A stretch of DNA of 64,000 nucleotides from Chloroflexota bacterium (GTDB lineage: Bacteria; Chloroflexota; UBA11872; VXOZ01): NCBI GenBank assembly GCA_963662335.2, contig CAXXVD010000002.1, forward strand, positions 736,001 to 800,000. Direction: 5' to 3'. The first letter of the stretch is position 1, and each line of letters begins with the position of its first letter. Both the position numbers and the translations under genes were made by a program. The notes beneath the pieces are model-generated. The model was given only the letters and a program-made list of their open reading frames with translations. It did no database searches and was not told the origin of the DNA. This document shows positions 8,553 to 64,000 of this stretch, in pieces.

Positions 8553-8750
8553 CGTCATTCCCGCGCACGCGGGAATCCATCTTGAGCGCCCACGGAGAGG
8601 ATGGATTCCCGCGTGCGCGGGAATGACGGTCAGCAGCCGTCTCTGCGGTAATGACGGTCAGCAGCCGCTTTTGCGGTAATGACGGTCAACAACCGCCTTT
8701 GCGGTAATGACGGTCAGCAGCCGCCTTTGCGGGAGTGACCGTCAGCCGGC
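8553..8750. repeat. CGTC-type REP inverted doublet followed by a 28-bp tandem array (~4.7 copies)
   Basis: CGTCATTCCCGCGCACGCGGGAATCCAT (8553-8580) with inverted copy 8601-8628; units GCGGKAATGACGGTCARCARCCGYYTYT start at 8617, 8645, 8673, 8701, 8729. Confidence 0.9.
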
Positions 8751-8844
8751 CTGCCAGCGGCGCTGGTAGCATAGCAAAAGCCCGCAACGATGAATTTCCG
8801 CACATCGTTACGGGCTTTGTAGAGCTTCCGGTCGAACGGTGCCT

Positions 8845-9504
8845 TTACGCCATCGGATGCATCGAGAGCGCCAGCGACGACTCGATGTTCCAGACCACTT
8901 GCGAGACCGCCTGGCCGATCAGGTCCAGCTTGCGCACCTGTTCGATGCGCGCGGCCGCTTGCCTCAATTCCTGTTTGGAGAGCAGCGTGCGGAAGATGCC
9001 GCAGGCGTCCGCCAGTCCGATGATGACGATGTCGCGCGGGCCGGGGATCACGTCGCTGAAGAGCACTTCCATAATCCGCAGCTTCACTTCCCGTTCGGCC
9101 TTGCCGTCGATCACCGGGTACCGCCGCGCCCGAAACACCCAGAGGAAGCGATCGGCGCGGCTCTCCAGAATGCCGTGCGTGATGAGCCGCTTCATGGCTT
9201 TGTCGCGGATGGCGTAGGCGTTCTCAGCCGTGTGCTCGATCCAATGGGCGATGTCGTGGACGTCAGTCGATTCCGCGATGGCGGCCAGCGTTGGATCCAG
9301 CAAGTCGTCACCGATGGGCGTCGGATCCAGCAGCATGAGCCGCTTGGGGTCGGTATCGACCCGGTTCTCCAACGCAATGTCCATCAACACGGCGCCGGCC
9401 AGGGCATACCGCAGCGACCACTCCGGGATGTGTGCGAACTCCCCACTCTCATCATCGAGCAAGAGGAGCATGATTTCTTCGGCGAAACGCAACATTTTCC
9501 TCAT
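8845..9504 (-). CDS. GPP34 / GOLPH3-Vps74 family protein
   Basis: MLRFAEEIMLLLLDDESG, LAGAVLMDIALENRV, PTPIGDDLLD, FLWVFRARRYP are typical of bacterial GPP34 proteins. Confidence 0.8.
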   Translation of the reverse strand: MRKMLRFAEEIMLLLLDDESGEFAHIPEWSLRYALAGAVLMDIALENRVDTDPKRLMLLDPTPIGDDLLDPTLAAIAESTDVHDIAHWIEHTAENAYAIRDKAMKRLITHGILESRADRFLWVFRARRYPVIDGKAEREVKLRIMEVLFSDVIPGPRDIVIIGLADACGIFRTLLSKQELRQAAARIEQVRKLDLIGQAVSQVVWNIESSLALSMHPMA

Positions 9505-14822: not shown

Positions 14823-16121
14823 TCATACGAGCGGGTCCAGAATACTCTCGTAGCCGGGCACGAAGAGCCGCTGGTACGTGCGTTCGGCTTGAAAGTCGGT
14901 CATGGTGGCGATATAGTCGCAGGCCACGCGCCGGCGCTCCGTATCATCACGCGCCGCGGCAAAGCGGTCTTGGAACTCCAGCGGGTACATCGCCGCGTTT
15001 TCTTCTGCCTGAAAGACGCCAAACAGCCGGTCCACCATGTGGTGGGCGCGGTGGGCGAGCGTCGTCACCCGCGGTTCCGCGAACACCAACACGAACGCCA
15101 CCTGCTTCAGCACTTCGCAGCGCCGCTCCTGGGCCTCGGGCACCATGAGGCCGTAGCGGTATCGTTCCGATTGGCTTGCCGTCCATCCCAGTCGCGGCGC
15201 GCCCTGGGCGCAGCGCACGAATTCATCGATGAGGCGCGAGGTCAAGTCCTTTAGCGCCGCCCGCGCGCGCCGCGGCGTCGGCAGGCCTTCCAGTGCAAGC
15301 AAACGCGCCGCCAACCAGTCGAGTTCGCCCACCACTTCATCAGCCGGCCAGGCGCGCCCGCGTTCTTCCGCCCCCTCCTGTACCCGCTGGATGACGGCCT
15401 CTTGATTCGCGGGCCGCCGCAAGTGTTGCACCGTGATCATCCCCACGTGAATGCCATCCTCCAAGTCGTGCGCCGAGTAGGCCACGTCGTCGGCCCAATT
15501 CATGATCTGGCATTCGAAAGACCGCTCCTCCGCCGAGCCGTATTCGCAGACCCACTCGAGGAGAGGCGCGTCGTCCGCATAGCAGGACTTGCTCGATGTG
15601 GGTCGTGAACCGTGAATAGCCTTGTACTTGAGCAGCCCATCCAGCACCCCTCGCGATAGATTGAGCCCCGCATAGCGGTCGGACTTGACCTCCAGCCGGG
15701 TCAAGACGCGCAGATTCTGGGCGTTGGCCTCGAAACTGCCGTGTTCCGCCATGCGCGCGCGCAAGACCTGTTCGCCGTAGTGGCCGAACGGCGGGTGGCC
15801 GATGTCGTGGGCCAGGCAAATCCCCTCAACCAACGTCGGATCGACGCCCAGCCGCAACGCCAGCGCCTTGCCGATCTGCGCCACTTCCAAAGAGTGTGTA
15901 AGCCGCGTGCGGAAGAAGTCGCCGTAGCGCACGCCGAACACCTGCGTCTTGCCCTGCAAGCGGCGAAAAGCGGCGCTGTGGACGATGCGCGCGCGGTCGC
16001 GCTCGAACTCCCCTCGTTCGTCATCGACCTTGGCAGCCTCAGGGTGGAGGCGCTCGCGGTCTTGCGGTGTATAGCGAATCACGTCATTTGACCACTCGCG
16101 GGCAGATGGCGCGCGCTGCAC
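14823..16121 (-). CDS. dgt: dGTP triphosphohydrolase (HD domain)
   Basis: RDRARIVHSAAFRRLQGKTQV, RTRLTHSLEV, LAHDIGHPPFGH, FEANAQ, WADDVAYSAHDLED, DYIATMTD; true start may be GTG 16082. Confidence 0.92.
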   Translation of the reverse strand: MQRAPSAREWSNDVIRYTPQDRERLHPEAAKVDDERGEFERDRARIVHSAAFRRLQGKTQVFGVRYGDFFRTRLTHSLEVAQIGKALALRLGVDPTLVEGICLAHDIGHPPFGHYGEQVLRARMAEHGSFEANAQNLRVLTRLEVKSDRYAGLNLSRGVLDGLLKYKAIHGSRPTSSKSCYADDAPLLEWVCEYGSAEERSFECQIMNWADDVAYSAHDLEDGIHVGMITVQHLRRPANQEAVIQRVQEGAEERGRAWPADEVVGELDWLAARLLALEGLPTPRRARAALKDLTSRLIDEFVRCAQGAPRLGWTASQSERYRYGLMVPEAQERRCEVLKQVAFVLVFAEPRVTTLAHRAHHMVDRLFGVFQAEENAAMYPLEFQDRFAAARDDTERRRVACDYIATMTDFQAERTYQRLFVPGYESILDPLV

Positions 16122-50779: not shown

Positions 50780-50928
50780 CCAGCGGCGCAGTTGTTCAGC
50801 GACACTTTCGTTGCTAAAGTATGATGAGCGGGTCGAATGCACTCGCAGAAAGACATTACGTCATCGGATCGACTACAGCAACGAGAGCACTGGCATGAGA
50901 CGAGCGATCCAATGAACAAAGCACTTCT

Positions 50929-51798
50929 ATGCTAACGAAAACCGGAACTGTGACCTACCGTGCTCTCAGCCTGGGTGCAGGCGTGCAGAGTTCTGTGTTG
51001 GCACTTCTTCTGTCCCGATCCGACCCCGGCTTGCTCGAACTTGGCTACCCCAAACCAAATGTCGCCGTGTTTGCCGACACTGGTTGGGAACCAGAGTATG
51101 TTTACCGCCACCTTGACTGGCTTGAAGAGCAACTTGACTATCCGCTAATCCGCGTATCTGATGGCGACATAAAGACAAACCTGAAGCAGGGGCGCACGGT
51201 TTCGGGACACCGGTTTGTGGATGTACCGTTGTTTATGGTGAACCCGGATGGTAAGAAAGGCATGTTGCGGCGGCAGTGTACAAGCCATTATAAGGTTAGA
51301 CCCATCTATCGTGAGATTAGACAGCTTGCAGGTGGACAACGCGGGCGGCCATTCCCAAAAGACACGTACGCTGAAATGTGGCTTGGGATATCTCGGGACG
51401 AGGTGGCGCGTATCAAGCCCAGCCGAGAACCATGGGTTGAACACCGCTGGCCGCTTGTGGAACTTGGTATGTCGCGCCAGGACTGCCTAGAGTGGTTCGC
51501 TTCTGAATACCCGGGCCGTCACCTTCCCCGGTCAGCTTGCGTCATTTGTCCCTATCGCTCGGATGAACACTGGCTGGAACTAAAGCGGTCTGAGCCTGAC
51601 AGTTACAACGAGGCCGTGAAGTTCGATGTATGGCTGCGAAATAGCGCAACGAACCCCGTGAGGGAGATCCTCAACGGCCGTCCGTACCTTCATGCTGCGC
51701 GCCGACCTCTTGCTAGCGTCATCGCTGAACGGGAATCTGATGATTCAGACGCGAACGACTACTTTGTCGAGGAGTGCGAGGGCGTCTGCGGTGTATGA
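50929..51798 (+). CDS. PP-loop / PAPS-reductase-like (adenine nucleotide alpha hydrolase) protein with conserved-looking cysteines
   Basis: SLGAGVQSS PP-loop variant, FADTGWE, RQCT..YK..PI, GISRDE..R, WPLVE, PRSACVICPY, C-terminal CEGVCGV. Confidence 0.75.
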   Translation: MLTKTGTVTYRALSLGAGVQSSVLALLLSRSDPGLLELGYPKPNVAVFADTGWEPEYVYRHLDWLEEQLDYPLIRVSDGDIKTNLKQGRTVSGHRFVDVPLFMVNPDGKKGMLRRQCTSHYKVRPIYREIRQLAGGQRGRPFPKDTYAEMWLGISRDEVARIKPSREPWVEHRWPLVELGMSRQDCLEWFASEYPGRHLPRSACVICPYRSDEHWLELKRSEPDSYNEAVKFDVWLRNSATNPVREILNGRPYLHAARRPLASVIAERESDDSDANDYFVEECEGVCGV

Positions 51799-53053
51799 GG
51801 CGCACACGGAGACGGTTAGCCCCAAGTATTCGCTTCATCCGTACCAGCGGCAGGTGCTGACTGACATCTTGCAGGCCCTGTCATCGCCTGAGCGTCGGGT
51901 CGTTGCGCACTTGCCAACCGGCGCTGGCAAGACGAGAATTGCCGCCCATGCTGCGTGCCGGCTGCTCAACGAGAATGACAACTACGACAAGCGAAGTGAG
52001 GAGCCCCTTGTAATCTGGTCGGCGTCTACAGAGGAGCTTTGCGAACAGGCGGCAGACCAACTTTCAGAGGCGTGGTCGTATCTGGGTTTGCGGGATGCTT
52101 CCATTCACCGCTATTGGGGCAACCGGTCGCTAGACCTGCGGCGACTGTCTTCTGGGTTCTTGGTAACCGGTCTTGCTAAACTGCATTCCGTTGCGTCCCG
52201 AGATAACACACTACTTGCGCACCTGGCCCATTGTACGGCAGGTGTGATCTTTGACGAGGCCCACCAGGCAGTTGCCGAGACCTACGCTTTTGTCACTGAG
52301 CAGCTATGCAGCACGCGGCCGCCTCTCCTCGGCTTGACCGCAACACCGGGGCGCACCGCGAACCTTACGGATGCTGACCATCAGCTTGCCGCTATGTTCG
52401 ATTACAAGAAAGTGTCAATAGACCCTAGAGGACATGAGAGCGCCGTTGCCTACCTCATTCAGAATCGCTACCTGGCTGACACGCGCTTTGTGCCGGTGGA
52501 CTTTGACTCTGATTTTGCAGTCGCAGACCCTCGCCCCGGCCTGGACTATAGTCGGCATGACCTAGCTGAACTGGGCCGCGACGAGCGCCGGACACGTGTG
52601 ATCGCTGAACACGCTATGGGTGCCGTTAGACGGCATCAGCGCACTATTGTGTTCTGCCCCTCGGTGGAGAGCGCACATATGTGCAACCGGCTTCTCTTGG
52701 CTGAGGGCATGGCTACTCACGTGATTACTGCGAAAACGTCCAGCGAGGAACGCCAGGACATCATAGCCACTTTCAAGAGCGACAGTAGGGAGCACATGGT
52801 GTTGTTCAACTACGGCGTGCTTACCGCCGGTTTCGACGCTCCGCGAACTCGTTGTGTCATTATCGCTCGCCCTACCACTTCATTGGTGCTCTATTCGCAA
52901 ATGGCGGGGCGCGCAATGCGCGGCCCTAGAGCCGGCGGCAACCCAAGAGCCGAAATACTCACTGTTGTCGACACGAACCTTCCAGGGTTCGGGTCAGTGA
53001 CCGAGGCGTTCACAAACTGGGAGGAACTATGGAAGACCAACTCGCCGAACTAA
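51791..53053 (+). CDS. SF2 DEAH-box helicase (ResIII/Helicase_C type)
   Basis: LHPYQ, LPTGAGKT, FDEAHQ, GLTATPGR, VFCPSV, VLTAGFDAP, QMAGRAMR; start placed at GTG 51791, overlapping the upstream stop. Confidence 0.9.
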   Translation: MYEAHTETVSPKYSLHPYQRQVLTDILQALSSPERRVVAHLPTGAGKTRIAAHAACRLLNENDNYDKRSEEPLVIWSASTEELCEQAADQLSEAWSYLGLRDASIHRYWGNRSLDLRRLSSGFLVTGLAKLHSVASRDNTLLAHLAHCTAGVIFDEAHQAVAETYAFVTEQLCSTRPPLLGLTATPGRTANLTDADHQLAAMFDYKKVSIDPRGHESAVAYLIQNRYLADTRFVPVDFDSDFAVADPRPGLDYSRHDLAELGRDERRTRVIAEHAMGAVRRHQRTIVFCPSVESAHMCNRLLLAEGMATHVITAKTSSEERQDIIATFKSDSREHMVLFNYGVLTAGFDAPRTRCVIIARPTTSLVLYSQMAGRAMRGPRAGGNPRAEILTVVDTNLPGFGSVTEAFTNWEELWKTNSPN

Positions 53054-54891
53054 GAGATGCAGACCGCAGCCTGTTTCCAGGTAGTTTTACAATACGCGCC
53101 ATTAGGGACAGCCGATACCATAGTACCGCATATGCAATTGCCGAGCTTATTGACAACTCAGTCGAAGCAGGGGCGCCTTTAGTCGAACTCTTGTGCATGG
53201 AAGATTCTCAGTTGGCGGAGGTGCGGACTCGGCGACGAGTATCCGAAATTGCAGTCCTAGATAACGGTGAAGGCATGAGCGCAAGAACGTTACTCGACGC
53301 CCTCAAGTTTGGTGGAGGCACTCGGCACGACTCTAATACGGGAATCGGCAAGTACGGCATGGGACTTCCTACTTCTTCAATGTCTCAATGCAAGAAAGTG
53401 GATGTTTGGACTTGGCAGAACGGACTGGATTCTGCATTGCATTCTAGCATTGACGCCGACGAGATTGAGAAAGGAAACCACGAGGTACCTATTCCTAACC
53501 GAGATACTCCAATTCCCGATACATGGAGAAGCGCCGGCAGCGATGAGATATATCGCAGCCGCTCAGGGACCCTTGTCGTATGGAGTAATCTGGACAAGAT
53601 TCAGTGGAAGACTTCTAAGGCAATTATCGAGAACTTGTCCAGGGAGGTTGGGCGCATCCATCGGCATTACATCAATCAAGAAATACATAGGATTCAGGCT
53701 GCATCATTCCTAAAGGATCGGGCTAGCGAACTCAAAAACAGAATACGGATTGTGGCAAACGATCCTCTCTACTTGATGACGCCTTCATCTACTCCAGAGG
53801 GGTGGGATACCAAGGCGATGTTTCGGGAGTGGGGTCCCACTAAAGACTATACGGTCTGGGTGGATGACCGGGAAGCGGTTATTCAGGTGAAATACTCGAT
53901 TGTGAAAGCCGAAGCTTTGAAGACTGATAGTATTTCGCAGCTTCCTGGCAACACTGAACGTGGCAGGCATGCAAGACATAACATTGGCGTGTCGGTCGTG
54001 CGCGAGGATAGAGAGCTAGTGCTTGAAGACGCGTTTCTGAGAGAGGGTGGCAGCACTGAGAACCCGCAAAATCGTTGGTGGGGGTGTGAAGTTCTTTTCT
54101 TTCGCAATTGTGATGAGCTGTTTGGCGTAGACCACAATAAACAGATGGTTGCAAACTTCACGCAAGCGGCAAAGGCTCTCGCTCGAGATGACCGCCCTCA
54201 ACATCGCATACTTGAAGAGATCGGGATCGACGAAAATGACCCGCTATATGCATTGGTGGGTGACATTCGGAACCAGACACGTGCCATGATGCGTGAAATC
54301 GGACAGATGTTTACACAGCGACGAGGGACCCAAGGACCGCGCGGTCGCAGGGGAAGTCCCGAAAAAAAGGCCGCAAGGACGGCTACCGATGCAGACCGAG
54401 ATGCTATGGCTAGCGGTGAAGAAAAGCCGACCGAGACTGACAGAGAACGAATGCAAAAGCCGGCCAATCAGCGAGAAGATGGTCTCAAGGCACAGTTCAT
54501 CTCGTATGGTCAGGCAGAGCAAGATGCCCAGGATCTCGCAAGGATGCTGGTACAGGAGGATCTCTCGTACCAGTTCACCTCAAGAAACCTTCCCGGTTAC
54601 CAGATTTTCAATGTGGAACGAAAGGAGGGTGTCCTTCTAATCGAACTCAATACTGACCATCCAGTCTACGACTTGCTGAGGCATGTTGAAGGTCGACTCG
54701 ACGAGGAAGGTGACGAGAGCGATCCTGCATTCCAATCAATCGTCGCTATCAGACTCTTGTTGTCTTCTTGGGCCCGGATGGAAGACCAGACCGAGTCCGA
54801 TCCCGATCGAAGACACATTCAACACATTGCAATGGATTGGGGACGTCAGGTAGACAAGTTCATTAGTCAACTCCGTGAAAGAGATGGTTAG
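53029..54891 (+). CDS. MORC-type GHKL (HATPase_c_3) ATPase
   Basis: AIAELIDNS, DNGEGM, GIGKYGMGL..SS.S, GTLVVW; S5-like GVSVVREDREL; C-terminal IELNTDHPVY. Confidence 0.85.
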   Translation: MEDQLAELRDADRSLFPGSFTIRAIRDSRYHSTAYAIAELIDNSVEAGAPLVELLCMEDSQLAEVRTRRRVSEIAVLDNGEGMSARTLLDALKFGGGTRHDSNTGIGKYGMGLPTSSMSQCKKVDVWTWQNGLDSALHSSIDADEIEKGNHEVPIPNRDTPIPDTWRSAGSDEIYRSRSGTLVVWSNLDKIQWKTSKAIIENLSREVGRIHRHYINQEIHRIQAASFLKDRASELKNRIRIVANDPLYLMTPSSTPEGWDTKAMFREWGPTKDYTVWVDDREAVIQVKYSIVKAEALKTDSISQLPGNTERGRHARHNIGVSVVREDRELVLEDAFLREGGSTENPQNRWWGCEVLFFRNCDELFGVDHNKQMVANFTQAAKALARDDRPQHRILEEIGIDENDPLYALVGDIRNQTRAMMREIGQMFTQRRGTQGPRGRRGSPEKKAARTATDADRDAMASGEEKPTETDRERMQKPANQREDGLKAQFISYGQAEQDAQDLARMLVQEDLSYQFTSRNLPGYQIFNVERKEGVLLIELNTDHPVYDLLRHVEGRLDEEGDESDPAFQSIVAIRLLLSSWARMEDQTESDPDRRHIQHIAMDWGRQVDKFISQLRERDG

Positions 54892-54893
54892 TC

Positions 54894-55748
54894 GTGTCGT
54901 ATACCCACGGCGACTTGCTGGGAAGCCTTTGTGCCGGCGCGCAGCGCTTGATCATTGCAGCACCTTACATCAAGACTTATGCACTTGCTAGACTATTGGC
55001 AGAACTTGACCCACTGGCAACCCTAATTTGCGTTACGCGGTGGAACCCACACGACCTTGCCGTCGGTGCTTCCGATGCAGACTGTCGCGCTATAGTCTTG
55101 CGGCGGGGTGGATCCTTCAGACTGCATCCCTCCCTGCACGCCAAGTACTACCGTATTGATGACGTGGTTCTCATTGGCTCCGCGAATCTCACGGCTTCTG
55201 CATTAGGCTGGTCCGCACAACCAAACTTGGAGATTCTTTGCCGTGCCGTTGACAACTTTGACGCAAGCGCATTCCAGCAAGAATTGATGGACGGCTCGCG
55301 AGAGATTACTGACGAAGAATTCGCGTATTGGGAGTCGATTTCAAAGATCACGGCCCCAACTAACCAGCCAATTGCTGGCGGTCAGCCTGTGCTTGAAACG
55401 TGGAGACCTTCAACACGCGACCCGAGAAACGTAGAACTTGCCTATCAAGGCAGAGAAGACGACATAGCCTCACTTGATGAACAGAGTGCGGCGCAAAGGG
55501 ACATCCAAGCCCTTTTGATACCGCCGGGTCTGAACGATGAGCAGGTTCGTGCATGGGCATCGGGCTGCTTGCTCGCCGCCCCTTTTGCCAACTCCGTGAT
55601 GCGGCTGCATGGTATAGATACGCCAACCGCCTCCCGCATACTCGCCGAGAACTATAGCATCAACATTACCGAGGCGAGAAGAGACATGGAAACCGTGCAG
55701 AACTGGCTGGCGTTTCTCGCCCCGGAGGCCACCTCAAAGCTCCCTTGA
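54894..55748 (+). CDS. Phospholipase-D-family (single HKD) nuclease-like protein
   Basis: IAAPYI, LHAKYYRIDD (HxKxxxxD), IGSANLT, NLE; unrecognised helical C-terminal half. Confidence 0.82.
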   Translation: MSYTHGDLLGSLCAGAQRLIIAAPYIKTYALARLLAELDPLATLICVTRWNPHDLAVGASDADCRAIVLRRGGSFRLHPSLHAKYYRIDDVVLIGSANLTASALGWSAQPNLEILCRAVDNFDASAFQQELMDGSREITDEEFAYWESISKITAPTNQPIAGGQPVLETWRPSTRDPRNVELAYQGREDDIASLDEQSAAQRDIQALLIPPGLNDEQVRAWASGCLLAAPFANSVMRLHGIDTPTASRILAENYSINITEARRDMETVQNWLAFLAPEATSKLP

Positions 55749-55794
55749 GATGCGGTGAGCTTGTCTCTTACGCACCCAACAAGCTATTCCACTG

Positions 55795-57030: not shown

Positions 57031-59283
57031 TTACTTGAATCGCTGGCCGATGTATTCTAAGGCCATCTTGAGCGGTAGTTCAGTTGTAGAAGGGCCGGTA
57101 CGAACGTAGAACCGTTCGTCGTTGCCATCCGTTACGTAAACAGGGGCCCGGGATGCCTCGCAGCGAACGACCAAGACACGCCCCCCTTCGAAGTCGTCAA
57201 AATTGGCGTGCATGAACGCCCAGACACTCGCTCCCATTCTCTCATTCACGATGTTGACCAGATGCAGACCCATGCGGTCCTCATTTGAAAAGCCGTCATC
57301 CTTCAAGCCAAGAGGCGAGCCGTCGTCAGCGACGCCAATGAGCAGCGTGCCGCCGCTCTTGTTTAGGAACCCGGCTAAAGTCTTGAGCGCCGACAGTTCA
57401 ATTCGGCTATCCCGCTTGCCTGTGTGGAGATTGACGCGGAGCGTCGACTTGAATTCGACTAAGTCGGATTCCCCGCCTGCTATCAGACTCTCCAGGTCGA
57501 TTGCATCAGTCTCGTCCTCAACGCCTATCGGTGTTGCAAGTTGCTGATACCCTTCTCGCATTATTTGCGCGATCAACTCCCGGCGTTTTCCTAAGAAAGC
57601 CCAATAATCCATGCTTTCCCAGCCGTCGGGCAGCCCATGGCGCACGTACATGTGTGCTAACGCCTCTTCGCAGAATCGTTCCCGCATAGGCGGCAGGTAC
57701 TCCTGCGGGGATTGAGCGGACATCCTTGCGTTATCCGTCCACTCCACGTAAGCATAATTGGCAATCTGATTGACGTCTCTTGTCGCTGTTATGCCGTTTT
57801 GCGCCAGATGGCCCCTTGGAAACAGATGGTGTCGCTCTATACTTCTGTGGCCGCCCCGCCAAGCAGGATCCAGCATTTCCGATATAGAAAATTCGGAGAA
57901 GAGAACTGGAGCATCCAGCAGGACCAGTGAAGCTTCGAACGCAAAGAGCGATGGACTGCGGGCAGAAGAGGTCGCGAGTTCACTTGGCAGCGTCACTTCC
58001 CAGAAGTCAGTGGTAAGTGTCACGTTGCATGTTTGATGAAGCTTGGCTGCGAACTCGTCAGCCGACTTAACTCCCCGCAACATTGCCAGATCGGACTCCA
58101 TCCGAGACTCCGGTGAGCCTGTGTAGCGGCCGGTCACGGCGGACATGAAGAACCACTGGGCGATGACCTGCCGGAGCGCGTGTTCTTCCATGCCAAGTTC
58201 TGTTTTACCAATCAAGTAAAGGATGTACGAATAGAGTAGCGCGGTCTGAGAGCTTATCATTCGGCGCGAACGGTAGCCGGCCCTTCTCAGACAGTGCATG
58301 AAGTCGTGCCAGTTCTGCAGGTTCAGCACTTTCGATTGGGCGTCTCTCAGCCGCTCGAACTGGTCGTCCCGCCGCTCTTCGCTGAACTCTCCAGATTCCA
58401 AGTCCTTCCCGCGCAATATCGAGTACACGTGTTCCAGCCTGGCTCGTTTGAATGCCAGCCCTACCCCCACACGAAGCATCTGATCAGGAGAGGGTTCAAT
58501 GAAGTGATTGTGCGGCGACGGCTCGCCGGTTGTTGGCGTACGGGCCTCTCTGCAGAAGCGTTCTAACTCAGTTCTCCCCTCATCCCAAAAGACTGACATA
58601 AGCGTGAGGATAAAGTCCGCCTGGTTGAGCGTCTTGCCCTGGCTATTGATCCTGACAAAGACTTCCGCAACCGCTTCCTCCGACGTTTCAGCGGATAGTT
58701 GGAGTGCGGTGAAGGGAAACCCGACCAGGCCTTGGAGCTTCGTGATGGCCGCTCGGATCGACCTGACCTCTTGGCTGGACAGTTCCCGCGCGGAGCGAAG
58801 CCCACTGAGATAGTCGTCTGCAACCTGGAACAGATCGGTCTCGTCGCTCCATAGCCGTGAAATGTCCGGGATGAATGACCTGTCGCGTTCAATCGCAGCG
58901 CTGGTCACCTCGAACACCTCTTCCATGGGGTTGAAGGCGATGCGGATGCGCTCGCTTCGGTAATTACTGCGAACGACGGTGGCTCCTTTGATTACGGCGA
59001 AGAGTGAGGTCAATCTCTGCTGACCATCGACGATGACCAAGCTAGGCGCGAGTTGTTTGGCATCCGAACCGATTGCCCTGTGCCCGGAGAGCAGCCCGTT
59101 TTGCCAGAAGAGCAGATACCCCACCGGATATCCCCGGTACATGGAGTCGAATAAGTCGCGGACTTTCGTGTTAGGCCAGACGAACGGCCGCTGAATGTCC
59201 GGCAGCCCAATCTGTCCCATGTCGATGTCATTGACGAGCTTCTCTAATGGAAATGTCACTTGTGCGAAGGCCGTCTTGCTCAT
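57031..59283 (-). CDS. GmrSD-like DUF262 + HNH(DUF1524-like) protein fused to a C-terminal Schlafen/AlbA_2 domain
   Basis: PDIQRPFVW, VDGQQRLTSL, FVRINSQG (DUF262); ERHHLFPR...NQIANY...DN (HNH-like); GESDLVEFKSTLR...AGFLNKSGGTLLIGVADDG...FYVRTGPST (AlbA_2); start at ATG 59283. Confidence 0.85.
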   Translation of the reverse strand: MSKTAFAQVTFPLEKLVNDIDMGQIGLPDIQRPFVWPNTKVRDLFDSMYRGYPVGYLLFWQNGLLSGHRAIGSDAKQLAPSLVIVDGQQRLTSLFAVIKGATVVRSNYRSERIRIAFNPMEEVFEVTSAAIERDRSFIPDISRLWSDETDLFQVADDYLSGLRSARELSSQEVRSIRAAITKLQGLVGFPFTALQLSAETSEEAVAEVFVRINSQGKTLNQADFILTLMSVFWDEGRTELERFCREARTPTTGEPSPHNHFIEPSPDQMLRVGVGLAFKRARLEHVYSILRGKDLESGEFSEERRDDQFERLRDAQSKVLNLQNWHDFMHCLRRAGYRSRRMISSQTALLYSYILYLIGKTELGMEEHALRQVIAQWFFMSAVTGRYTGSPESRMESDLAMLRGVKSADEFAAKLHQTCNVTLTTDFWEVTLPSELATSSARSPSLFAFEASLVLLDAPVLFSEFSISEMLDPAWRGGHRSIERHHLFPRGHLAQNGITATRDVNQIANYAYVEWTDNARMSAQSPQEYLPPMRERFCEEALAHMYVRHGLPDGWESMDYWAFLGKRRELIAQIMREGYQQLATPIGVEDETDAIDLESLIAGGESDLVEFKSTLRVNLHTGKRDSRIELSALKTLAGFLNKSGGTLLIGVADDGSPLGLKDDGFSNEDRMGLHLVNIVNERMGASVWAFMHANFDDFEGGRVLVVRCEASRAPVYVTDGNDERFYVRTGPSTTELPLKMALEYIGQRFK

Positions 59284-59595
59284 TGCAATTGCTCTCCGTG
59301 GCTTGCAGGACAATGATAGTCAAGGAAGTCGCAAGCACGCATGGGCCTTTCACCCGCCAATCCAAGCACTTGATGCCTGCCCATTCTCGTGACCTTCCTG
59401 CTTGCTCAATCCTATGTACGGGTACTTTGGCAGTCCTGGGATCCACTCCGGGAACTGAAACCAAAGCGGCGTGCACCCCGCAGTGAAATCCAGGTACTAT
59501 TGCCACGCACACTCCAGACTACTCGCTTGCGCGCGGCCTGGTCTAGCAGCGTTGCGTGACCTTGCAAAGACTCATGTCGAGCGGCAATCGAACTC

Positions 59596-63310: not shown

Positions 63311-63937
63311 TCACAGCGCCTGCAGGAATCTTTTCAGCGGATCATAGACCGGCGATTCTAGGCACCAGTGCCCGGCTTCAGTTGCTTCTCCAACGCGTAG
63401 CTCAGGTTTAGATCGGGAAGCCAAGAAGGCATACGCCCGTGCCTTGTCAGAAATGCAATGTGACACTCCTGCGGTCTCTTTTAAGCATTGCACGTATTGC
63501 TTCACACACTGTATGGCAGGATCACACGCTACTGCCGAAAGACAAAGCGTCTCGAGTGTCCCTGGACTCGCGCAGTCCGGCAGGACATAGACCCCAACTC
63601 GCGGCCTGCCCTGCGTCACAACCATTGGAGCATTCGGTGCGCCCAAGCCAGCATTCTTAAGCAAGCCGCGTACCGACTGAAATGCCTGTGATGAAGATTT
63701 GTCCGCGTCGCGCGTAACCCCAATTGATTCTAAAGTAGGGTACTCCGGCCTGACAGGCAACGCACGCAAAACTCTCTTGAGGTTGCCTATTCCCTTGAAA
63801 TTGGCGACTTGAACGGGATCTGAAGTGTCCAACTCATCAAGGAGAAATCGAAAGAATCGATACTCACTCTCTCCTTCCACCAAAAGCAACTTTGGCAGTA
63901 CGATTTCGATATGGTCTTCGCTACCTTGTACGGACAT
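63311..63937 (-). CDS. DUF3226-like TOPRIM-fold protein
   Basis: LLLVEGESE, IGVTRDAD (DxD), PDC..PGTLETLC, KARAYAFLA; lower GC. Confidence 0.7.
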   Translation of the reverse strand: MSVQGSEDHIEIVLPKLLLVEGESEYRFFRFLLDELDTSDPVQVANFKGIGNLKRVLRALPVRPEYPTLESIGVTRDADKSSSQAFQSVRGLLKNAGLGAPNAPMVVTQGRPRVGVYVLPDCASPGTLETLCLSAVACDPAIQCVKQYVQCLKETAGVSHCISDKARAYAFLASRSKPELRVGEATEAGHWCLESPVYDPLKRFLQAL

Positions 63938-63942
63938 TGCCA

Positions 63943-64000
63943 CTAGCGCACCTCGAAGTTGAATTCTATGGAAGTTTCCAGTTGCTCTTGGTCGTATGTT
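63943..64000 (-). CDS. 3' end of a probable AAA/ABC-type ATPase, partner of the DUF3226 gene (partial)
   Basis: Reads ...TYDQEQLETSIEFNFEVR*; a C-terminal EVR right before a DUF3226 gene matches my recollection of these ATPases; only 18 codons visible. Confidence 0.5.
   Translation of the reverse strand, partial: TYDQEQLETSIEFNFEVR

Follow-up and report, generated by a model that had tools for sequence, protein, structure and literature searches.

A PAPS-reductase-fold enzyme in a horizontally acquired helicase–GHKL ATPase–HKD nuclease cassette: a divergent SspD-like candidate for DNA marking

What role does an enzyme of the PAPS-reductase fold play when its gene neighbours are a helicase, an ATPase and a nuclease? 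The question is raised by a 289-amino-acid (aa) protein encoded at positions 50929–51798 of a 64,000-nucleotide (nt) stretch from a Chloroflexota bacterium (contig CAXXVD010000002.1, positions 736,001–800,000, assembly GCA_963662335.2), hereafter the window. A reading of the DNA letters without database searches (the sequence-only reading) had described an atypical PP-loop enzyme with a C-terminal cysteine pair, and had taken it for a nucleic-acid thiolating or adenylating enzyme rather than one of sulfate assimilation.

Sequence comparison identifies the enzyme as a divergent SspD-like protein and the surrounding cassette as most likely a variant of a phosphorothioation-type defence system, the enzyme gene having been acquired horizontally together with its four-gene operon. 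We give an even chance to the reading that the enzyme is the marking half of a restriction–modification (R-M)-like cassette, in which the three downstream products, hereafter the trio, would restrict unmarked DNA. This reading draws on the position of the enzyme, where the methyltransferase of the CglI and NgoAVII systems would be, and on its pairing with differing partners (DndB, GmrSD-like proteins, PbeA/PbeC and the trio), as modification genes do. It also draws on lone copies in phages, directly after an ArdC gene, or fused to a C5-methyltransferase-like part, which are the places of orphan protective DNA modifiers.

The enzyme and its four-gene operon

The features of the enzyme gene and its operon are listed below. 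Row counts refer to 85 family members from cellular loci, phages and plasmids; alignment A1 holds 41 sequences with 36–81% identity to the query. ORF stands for open reading frame and pLDDT for predicted local distance difference test.

50929..51798, plus strand: PAPS-reductase/PP-loop-fold protein (P0001), 289 aa, cassette gene 1; ATG-started ORF, from translation
50968..50994, plus strand: loop S14-LGAGVQS-S22 at the place of the PP-loop; G16, G18, Q20 and S21 in 85/85 rows
51070..51093, plus strand: motif F48-ADTGWEP-55; F48, D50, T51 and E54 invariant in A1
51268..51282, plus strand: RRQCT with C117, a candidate iron–sulfur (Fe-S) ligand; C117 in 85/85 rows
51484..51486, plus strand: C186 in RQDC, the sixth conserved cysteine; Cys in 52/85 rows
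51532..51555, plus strand: SACVICPY with C204 and C207 (CxxC); both in 85/85 rows
51751..51795, plus strand: acidic, predicted disordered tail, residues 275–289, ending ECEGVCGV (C283, C287); pLDDT below 50, pair in 83/85 rows
about 50850..55790, no strand: low-GC island with the four cassette genes, seen as a drop in GC; borders approximate
51692..53053, plus strand: superfamily 2 (SF2) helicase/translocase ORF; Pfam ResIII 1.8e-18, Helicase_C 6.5e-16, DEAD 1.7e-15
53029..54891, plus strand: GHKL ATPase (MORC-type, HATPase_c_3), 620 aa; Pfam HATPase_c_3 3e-21
54894..55748, plus strand: nuclease of the HKD/phospholipase D (PLD) family, 284 aa, with an all-helical C-terminal domain; Pfam PLDc_2 27.0 bits, at the cut-off

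The strand opposite the enzyme gene is full of stops. The ORF, the loop SLGAGVQSS and the cysteines in RQCT, SACVICPY and CEGVCGV, as first described, are all present in the translation. Eleven residues (G16, G18, Q20, S21, D50, C117, C186, C204, C207, C283 and C287) are invariant in A1 (n=41), and G16, G18, Q20, S21, D50, C117, C204 and C207 are found in every one of the 85 family rows. The pair C283 and C287 is present in 83 rows, the exceptions being locus L077 and the annotated coding sequence (CDS) of plasmid pTiC58. The five cysteines named at the outset (C117, C204, C207, C283 and C287) are thus genuine family features, kept in 83–85 of 85 relatives, and the non-conservation that would have spoken against the proposal was not seen; the sixth, C186 in RQDC, had been overlooked. 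C186 is Cys in all 28 rows of the clade to which the window's enzyme belongs; among the 37 rows linked to PDC-M33 genes (described below), 33 have Leu, Ile or Val at this position, and SspD has Ile. On this conservation, C117, C204 and C207 probably hold an Fe-S cluster, with C186 as a possible further ligand. A mobile C-terminal tail fits, since residues 275–289 are the only stretch with pLDDT below 50. The predicted combination of a cluster and a mobile thiol is consistent with this disordered, cysteine-bearing tail and with the conserved Cys...CxxC.

The cassette consists of four same-strand genes, overlapping or abutting, for the PAPS-reductase-like enzyme, the SF2 helicase, the GHKL/MORC-type ATPase and the HKD/PLD nuclease. 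The helicase ORF overlaps the end of the enzyme gene, its true start probably lying later than 51692 because conservation begins at about residue 26, and the GHKL gene overlaps the helicase gene by 25 nt. The GxGKT (Walker A) and DEAH columns of the helicase are invariant in alignment A3, and the GHKL ATPase is MzaB-like at low score. In the PLD protein, H82, K84, G95, S96 and N98 (H-x-K...GSxN) are invariant in alignment A4; its AlphaFold2 model (pLDDT 92.2) matched SauUSI (4.9e-6) and the NgoAVII R-protein (2.4e-4), then NucT, Nuc and BfiI, in Foldseek. PADLOC 2.0.0 holds no model of its own for the helicase, GHKL ATPase or PLD protein of the trio.

The four genes occupy a foreign island of GC 0.50–0.58, compared with 0.64–0.68 in the flanks, and their GC content at third codon positions (GC3) is 0.51–0.65, compared with 0.79–0.90 in the neighbouring host genes. 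The island is flanked by an oligopeptide-type ABC transporter operon and a mandelate-racemase-family gene. No direct or inverted repeats flank it, and promoter-like and terminator-like sites at the island were no commoner than in shuffled sequences. A Pfam scan of the 48 ORFs of the window detected no sulfate-assimilation gene, cysteine desulfurase or DNA methyltransferase. The sequence-only reading was therefore right that no cys genes lie nearby and that sulfate assimilation is not the role of the enzyme, whose neighbours in the low-GC island are the helicase, GHKL and HKD genes. The look at gene neighbourhoods that it proposed reveals a defence-type cassette; the operon itself, the main clue, was absent from that reading.

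MORC-type GHKL ATPases together with SF2 helicases and HKD domains are described as a theme of R-M operons (PMC2292703), and the CglI and NgoAVII systems as a methyltransferase with a PLD nuclease and a helicase (PMC4267653). The trio shares the SF2 helicase, GHKL and HKD theme, and its PLD model matches SauUSI and the NgoAVII R-protein in their nuclease domains. In contrast, NgoAVII/CglI, SauUSI and the MORC-containing operons use a methyltransferase or read methylation, whereas here a PAPS-reductase-like enzyme stands in that place. Unlike NgoAVII/CglI and SauUSI, the trio also splits its three activities over three separate proteins. By analogy, the trio looks like an ATP-dependent nuclease module such as those R-M operons contain.

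Fold, family and nearest models of the enzyme

The AlphaFold2 model of the enzyme, built from the 41-sequence alignment (mean pLDDT 91.7, predicted template-modelling score 0.86), indicates that the protein has the PP-loop/PAPS-reductase fold, a Rossmann-like alpha/beta fold also seen in PAPS reductase, TtuA, LarE and GMP synthetase. Foldseek returned 40 matches in the PDB at E up to 0.001, and those listed all belong to the PP-loop superfamily, with template-modelling (TM) scores of about 0.33–0.41. TtuA, [4Fe-4S] LarE, CysH and adenosine phosphosulfate (APS) reductase stood at the top; NcsA was also matched, and the CysH/APS reductase entries were 1sur, 6vpu and 7lhr. Because the top matches all lie at E of about 1e-4 and TM of about 0.4, no close relative of the enzyme appears to have been solved. 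The search against BFVD gave only general 'PAPS reductase' and QueC matches, and the nearest ESM Atlas clusters were mostly viral. A PDB sequence search with the single enzyme returned just WhiB7, a chance-level match that was discarded. The family profile had one weak match in the PDB, 21fy chain C 'PptA' (270 aa, E 0.0055), covering the region of GIS.DE, R.DC and C..C. This chain was not among the listed Foldseek PDB matches (entries released up to April 2026), and we found no paper on PptA of 21fy.

Against the Pfam PAPS_reduct model (PF01507) the enzyme scored 19.6 bits, under the 22.5-bit gathering cut-off, and NCBIfam gave no match at E up to 0.01. SspD was the sole defence model matched in PADLOC (E 1.5e-12, 45.8 bits), the DndC and BrxP models giving no match at E up to 0.01. 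Among proteins of 158–506 residues the family comprises 5437 at E up to 0.001, and a search of clusters at 50% identity gave 4107, of which 1185 are reached at E up to 1e-30; at E up to 1e-10 there are 424 longer relatives. The 120 close homologues listed carry no precomputed Pfam domain, and their only name is 'hypothetical protein'. The branch is large and strongly conserved, and has no model of its own in Pfam, NCBIfam or PADLOC.

Next to SspD of Trichormus variabilis plasmid A, the enzyme shows 23% pairwise identity, and hhalign of the family profile with this SspD gave 98.7% probability over 199 columns. SGGKDS of SspD falls opposite GAGVQS in both the pairwise and the profile alignments, and therefore the Lys and Asp of the ATP-pyrophosphatase loop are lost in the enzyme. 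The SGGxDS loop with Lys and Asp that marks PP-loop ATP pyrophosphatases is thus not found here, and Q20 takes its own place in 85 of 85 rows. The Asp of the SGGKDS loop in PP-loop enzymes binds Mg-ATP. RRQCT aligns with RWCT of SspD, SACVICPY with SGCFFC, and the F48-ADTGWEP-55 region both with FCDTHKELPE of SspD and with LTDTGYLFPE of Escherichia coli CysH. The alignment by hhalign with CysH of E. coli K-12 spans 61 columns at 15.7% probability; in it, SSFGIQAAV pairs with SLGAGVQSSV and LTDTGYLFPETY with FADTGWEPEYVY. The alignment of the two loops suggests that the loop is of the reductase type and not a new type. Accordingly, the description as an atypical PP-loop holds as far as the difference from SGGKDS goes, but not as an oddity of its own, as the loop aligns residue for residue with that of E. 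coli CysH. The 'adenylating' half of the proposed activity is weakened by the loss of the loop Lys and Asp; what survives of that proposal is a role outside assimilation, with SspD as the nearest named model.

The C-terminus reads RECGLHEG in E. coli CysH and ECEGVCGV in the enzyme, and nine plasmid SspD proteins end in CxxC. The tails of CysH and the enzyme are alike by eye, no alignment spanning them. All three tails carry Cys, which makes a cysteine-bearing tail common to the three groups, and the C-terminal pair loses the special standing first given to it, since true SspD proteins also end in CxxC. Overall, the enzyme shares with SspD of the SspABCD system of single-strand DNA phosphorothioation the fold, the F-x-DT motif, the RxCT cysteine, the CxxC and the C-terminal cysteine pair. 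Its place is shared as well, the sspD gene of Pannonibacter plasmid p.BB_2 also lying directly upstream of a homologous helicase–GHKL–PLD trio. It differs from SspD in having GAGVQS for SGGKDS, the extra cysteine C186 and a CxxxC rather than CxxC tail, and in having no SspA, SspB or SspC nearby.

With CysH/APS reductase the enzyme shares the loop (G-[IV]-Q) and the DTG motif, and its acidic tail with Cys near the C-terminus resembles that of CysH by eye. In contrast, it exceeds the 244 aa of E. coli CysH by about 45 residues and has an added helical C-terminal part, it scores under the Pfam cut-off, and its context is one of defence with no cys genes. PAPS reductase is a name given to SspD, BrxP and DndC (PMC12839542). 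DndC and BrxP, of Dnd and type 4 BREX phosphorothioation, belong to the same superfamily as the enzyme and have the same presumed role of sulfur-inserting defence enzyme. The enzyme differs in its much shorter length, as the earlier description had said (289 aa compared with 468 and 481 positions in the PADLOC DndC profiles), in giving no profile match, and in having no DndB/D/E or BREX genes nearby; true SspD proteins also match the BrxP and DndC models of PADLOC.

Distribution of the enzyme and of the trio

One genome per species was scanned for relatives; 571 stretches matched, 551 were confirmed, and the best 80 loci were kept. The four genes occur in the window's order in 27 of these 80 loci (L001–L027), which come from metagenome-assembled genomes of several phyla and are 64–87% identical; a contig end cuts the cassette in three of them. 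In all 27, conservation among the four genes is highest for the enzyme. The cassette of L001 sits between the same flanking genes as that of the window. Where enough sequence is available (24 loci), damage to a trio gene is seen in 5: L017 carries an insertion sequence element, L021 a deletion, L003 and L024 frame changes, and L013 an in-frame stop. The enzyme is intact in 27/27 loci and keeps the 25 checked residues, bar one S14A. L021, the locus with the deletion, also has a fragment (about 8740–9100) that matches 120 residues of canonical Trichormus SspD at 46% identity. This fragment sits immediately 5′ of the window-type enzyme gene and runs into its start; of the trio in this locus, a 174-aa helicase stub is what is left.

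In a quick maximum-likelihood tree, 28 trio-linked enzymes formed one clade on a long stem (SH-aLRT 99). The interior of this clade mixes rows from Chloroflexota, Latescibacterota, Rhodothermaceae, Gemmatimonadetes, Binatia and Alphaproteobacteria, some of them near-identical sisters. Given this interleaving of phyla, the cassette moves between phyla.

The trio is also found beside ssp genes on plasmids. A tblastn search with the GHKL protein matched 47 plasmid records, from which 11 loci were examined (the best 12 rows minus a second Trichormus strain). An SspD-type gene, 44–100% identical to the Trichormus SspD query, was present in the fetched stretch of 9 of the 11, an annotated DUF4007 (SspB) gene in 7 and an annotated cysteine desulfurase in 7. 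The two loci with no SspD-type gene are those of Agrobacterium pAtCFBP7129b and Cyanobacterium HL-69, the latter with an incomplete gene table. On Trichormus plasmid A, SspB (5e-125), SspC (E 0), SspD (6.6e-119) and SspA (3.7e-133) are all present, and the trio lies between SspD and SspA. The order on Pannonibacter p.BB_2 is DUF4007, an SspC-sized ATPase, PAPS reductase, helicase, GHKL and PLD; apart from the two leading genes, this matches the window. The trios of the window and of Trichormus are homologous, with identities of 41% for the helicase (423 aa), 35% for the GHKL protein (620 aa) and 33% for the PLD protein. These plasmid neighbourhoods identify the trio, at the level of gene linkage, as a partner of phosphorothioation genes; in the window, a single divergent SspD-like enzyme stands where those genes would be.

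Agrobacterium pAtCFBP7129b (L086) and Aminobacter pUSP2 (L096) carry a 359-aa hypothetical protein after the GHKL gene instead of an annotated PLD gene, and in L086 a DUF1612/HTH_13 'RHE_PE00001 family' protein comes before the trio and an FtsK/SpoIIIE giant after it. From these arrangements, the trio has variants without a PAPS-reductase gene. The Ssp partners SspE and SspFGH are reported in 196, 199 and 36 of 2678 sspBCD modules, about 16% (PMC8092258). SspFGH was considered as a counterpart of the window's trio and rejected, because its members are described as other proteins, among them a Walker A protein and an FtsK-like protein (PMC8092258); SspE likewise differs from the trio proteins. 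In the literature searched, we found no paper linking SspD or SspBCD with GHKL, MORC or phospholipase D proteins, and PMC10853773 makes no mention of MORC, GHKL, PLD, phospholipase D or HATPase.

The closest cellular relatives of the enzyme (42–51% identity) are fusions with DUF6339. A PDC-M33A or PDC-M33B gene is present in 37 of the best 80 loci, mostly with the enzyme fused to an N-terminal DUF6339 (= PDC-M33C), the fused gene coming after the PDC-M33A (1.7e-84) and PDC-M33B (1.6e-32) genes; of the 424 longer relatives, the best 120 all contain DUF6339 (PF19866). The PDC-M33 modules have as partners DndB-like genes in 18 loci, a small GIY-YIG gene in 10, GmrSD-like genes in 7 and PbeA/PbeC in 5, and in L033, L038 and L042 the same helicase–GHKL–PLD trio. 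A separate clade of 11 unfused enzymes lies mostly beside DndB. The window's enzyme differs from the PDC-M33 forms in having neither a DUF6339 domain nor an M33A/M33B neighbour and in keeping C186, which those forms have lost. PDC-M33A, PDC-M33B and one fused enzyme had no PDB relative by sequence, neither DUF4007/SspB nor PLD was detectable in M33B, and no paper in the literature searched mentions DUF6339.

In PDC-M33A (L028:5452–7368 with 28 relatives; alignment A6), the consensus contains stretches that look GHKL-like by eye, namely QNSLDA, DxGTTGL and GGSFGIGKNA. By hhalign the probability of PDC-M33A with the window's GHKL protein was 0.4%, and Pfam gave just SACS in 3 of the 29 members (E 0.079). 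A real resemblance would link the enzyme branch with GHKL ATPases in two different architectures.

Relatives of 31–43% identity were found in 51 phage records, 28 of them from Mycobacterium prophages or phages, in line with the earlier mention of similar phage proteins. They include Pelagibacter phage HTVC034P, Geobacillus phage PK5.1, Thermus phage P23-77, Salisaeta phage SSIP-1 and M. abscessus prophages. The phage copies stand alone among replication and early genes. A further 188 plasmid records hold relatives, Agrobacterium accounting for 109. The pTiC58 copy (ATU_RS23540; L081, NC_003065.3 132286–133200) lies directly after the ArdC anti-restriction gene. Its annotated CDS stops short of the terminal cysteine pair, and the tblastn match continues to residue 289. 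On several Agrobacterium plasmids (H3–H8, H14–H16) the match falls in two pieces with no annotated gene, suggesting decayed copies. On a plasmid of Mesorhizobium sp. L-2-11 (L084:4503–5822), a 439-aa fusion annotated as a DNA cytosine methyltransferase (Dcm) carries about 165 N-terminal residues with C5-methyltransferase motif I and motif IV-like stretches, followed by a full copy of the enzyme, in a phage-like replication region (P4-type primase, Bro-N).

These phage and plasmid PAPS reductase-like proteins, described as being of unknown function (PMC11437467), belong to the branch of the window's enzyme and keep the loop and the cysteines, including C186, in four aligned copies, except for the last pair in the pTiC58 CDS. 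They differ in standing alone or by ArdC, whereas the window's clade is tied to the trio. A fusion of a PAPS-reductase domain with Dam in a vibriophage is reported to escape Dnd (preprint 10.1101/2021.05.05.442762); this protein was not among the phage matches of the family, and therefore that experiment concerns another branch. Phage PAPS reductases are also described in Aca-regulated anti-defence regions (PMC13551039).

Candidate functions of the enzyme

We infer that the substrate of the enzyme is DNA. As the modification half of an R-M-like defence system, the enzyme would write a covalent mark on host DNA. The mark would most likely contain sulfur and lie in the backbone, of the phosphorothioate kind, with the sulfur coming from a housekeeping cysteine desulfurase or another donor. 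The helicase, GHKL ATPase and HKD nuclease would then work together as a restriction machine driven by ATP, one that leaves marked DNA alone or reads the mark, so that self would be told from non-self.

Several points weigh against the marking role. No SspA, SspB (DUF4007), SspC or PDC-M33A/B was found among the 48 ORFs of the window or within 7 kb in L001–L027, the view of the genome being the 64-kb window, so that partner genes may lie elsewhere. The SspD profile score is weak, at 45.8 bits compared with 303 and 394.7 for the true SspD proteins of ssp clusters. The loss of the loop Lys and Asp makes ATP-dependent adenylation of the backbone doubtful; together with the lack of SspA/B/C nearby, it implies that the chemistry may differ from that of SspD. 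The loop of the enzyme resembles that of CysH, but the overall probability of the CysH alignment is low (15.7%). The experiments in the literature concern other branches, none having been found on members of this one, and we know of no demonstrated case of a lone SspD-like protein modifying DNA. The asymmetry of decay between trio and enzyme (5/24 vs 0/27) was set aside as evidence, target size alone giving p of about 0.38.

The CysH-like loop leaves room for a different chemistry as well as for a non-marking role as sensor or regulator. A different chemistry would make the enzyme a self-sufficient, single-protein DNA marker that, unlike Dnd and Ssp, dispenses with ATP adenylation and cysteine desulfurase and takes its sulfur from APS/PAPS, or carries it as a persulfide or thiosulfonate on the C-terminal cysteine pair; we consider this quite unlikely. 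The enzyme might instead mark no DNA at all and serve the trio as a sensor, regulator or small-molecule partner, for example through CysH-like thiol chemistry on a sulfonucleotide or adenylated compound that would produce or remove a signal or cofactor switching the nuclease on; we hold this to be unlikely. The alignment of the loop and DTG motif with CysH, the lost ATP-binding Lys and Asp and a tail resembling the catalytic tail of CysH all agree with such a role. So do the lack of the DNA-targeting partners SspB and SspC and the gene overlap, which suggests tight co-expression with the helicase; to our knowledge, other defence PP-loop enzymes (QueC-like QatC, Cap9) are not DNA modifiers. However, the lone phage copies and the ArdC-adjacent plasmid copy lack a trio that they could regulate. 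In addition, SspD, the nearest named model, modifies DNA, a DNA-methyltransferase-like segment is fused to one relative, and the enzyme swaps between quite different partner modules.

A further alternative is a counter-defence or selfish gene, of the sort found in phages and plasmids, that protects its carrier's DNA against other restriction systems and has no working tie to the trio with which it travels in a defence island. The relatives in 51 phage and 188 plasmid records, the mostly viral ESM Atlas clusters and the pTiC58 copy directly after ArdC point this way, as do the vibriophage PAPS-Dam fusion reported to escape Dnd (10.1101/2021.05.05.442762) and the PAPS reductases described in Aca-regulated anti-defence regions (PMC13551039). 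Set against this are the fixed order and overlapping genes in 27 loci across several phyla, and the single, well supported, long-stem clade of 28 trio-linked enzymes, which points to co-inheritance with the trio. SspD-type genes are moreover linked to a homologous trio in 9 of 11 plasmid loci, and the vibriophage protein falls outside the matches to the enzyme family; we regard a gene of this kind as decidedly unlikely. Thiolation of RNA (tRNA) in the manner of TtcA, TtuA and NcsA, for example to alter translation during infection, is very improbable. The best Foldseek matches do include the Fe-S enzymes TtuA and NcsA, and the C...CxxC with its three cysteines is conserved, but these matches, with TM of about 0.4 and E of about 1e-4, are weak and do not surpass those to CysH, the partners are DNA enzymes, and the canonical PP-loop of those thiolases is lost. 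An ordinary APS/PAPS reductase of sulfate assimilation, which the CysH-like loop, DTG motif and cysteine-bearing tail might recall, is extremely improbable in view of the score under the Pfam cut-off, the lack of an NCBIfam match, the hhalign probability of 15.7% over 61 columns, the 48 ORFs without cys genes, the foreign composition and the defence-type neighbours.

Other genes of the window and meaning of the cassette

Three further genes of the window, all on the minus strand, were noted. The product of the gene at 57031–59313 (760 aa; PADLOC HEC-05, 3.1e-36) has a GmrSD_N (DUF262-type) domain at its N-terminus and a Schlafen/AlbA_2 domain at its C-terminus. The gene lies in a low-GC patch of its own (GC3 0.66) on the far side of the mandelate-racemase-family gene, and no counterpart was found in the syntenic L001 within 3.8 kb beyond that gene. 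The GmrSD_N–Schlafen gene is probably an insertion of its own, resembling type IV restriction. At 63311–63943, near the window edge, a DUF3226 protein (3.4e-30) has GC3 of 0.52, compared with 0.79–0.86 in its neighbours, and may be part of another foreign, perhaps defence, gene set running off the window. The HD + HD_assoc protein at 14823–16121 has a dGTP-triphosphohydrolase-like architecture and a native GC3 of 0.80 and appears ordinary; the dGTP-triphosphohydrolase-like HD family is sometimes antiviral.

DNA phosphorothioation is thought to need several proteins, DndA/C/D/E or SspA/B/C/D, and the phage and plasmid genes named 'PAPS reductase' or 'cysH' are often counted as auxiliary genes of sulfur metabolism. 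If the enzyme marks DNA alone, it would stand as a minimal modifier of DNA, of the sulfur type or of an altogether new one. In that case it would also explain a common class of misnamed viral genes and give a function to the helicase–GHKL–PLD trio that accompanies many ssp clusters. If the CysH-like marker were true, thousands of phage and plasmid 'PAPS reductase' or 'cysH' genes would be anti-restriction DNA modifiers, and the trio would be a third, unnamed restriction partner of sulfur-marked DNA. Even if the enzyme does not mark DNA, it would still be a conserved component of a widely exchanged defence cassette.

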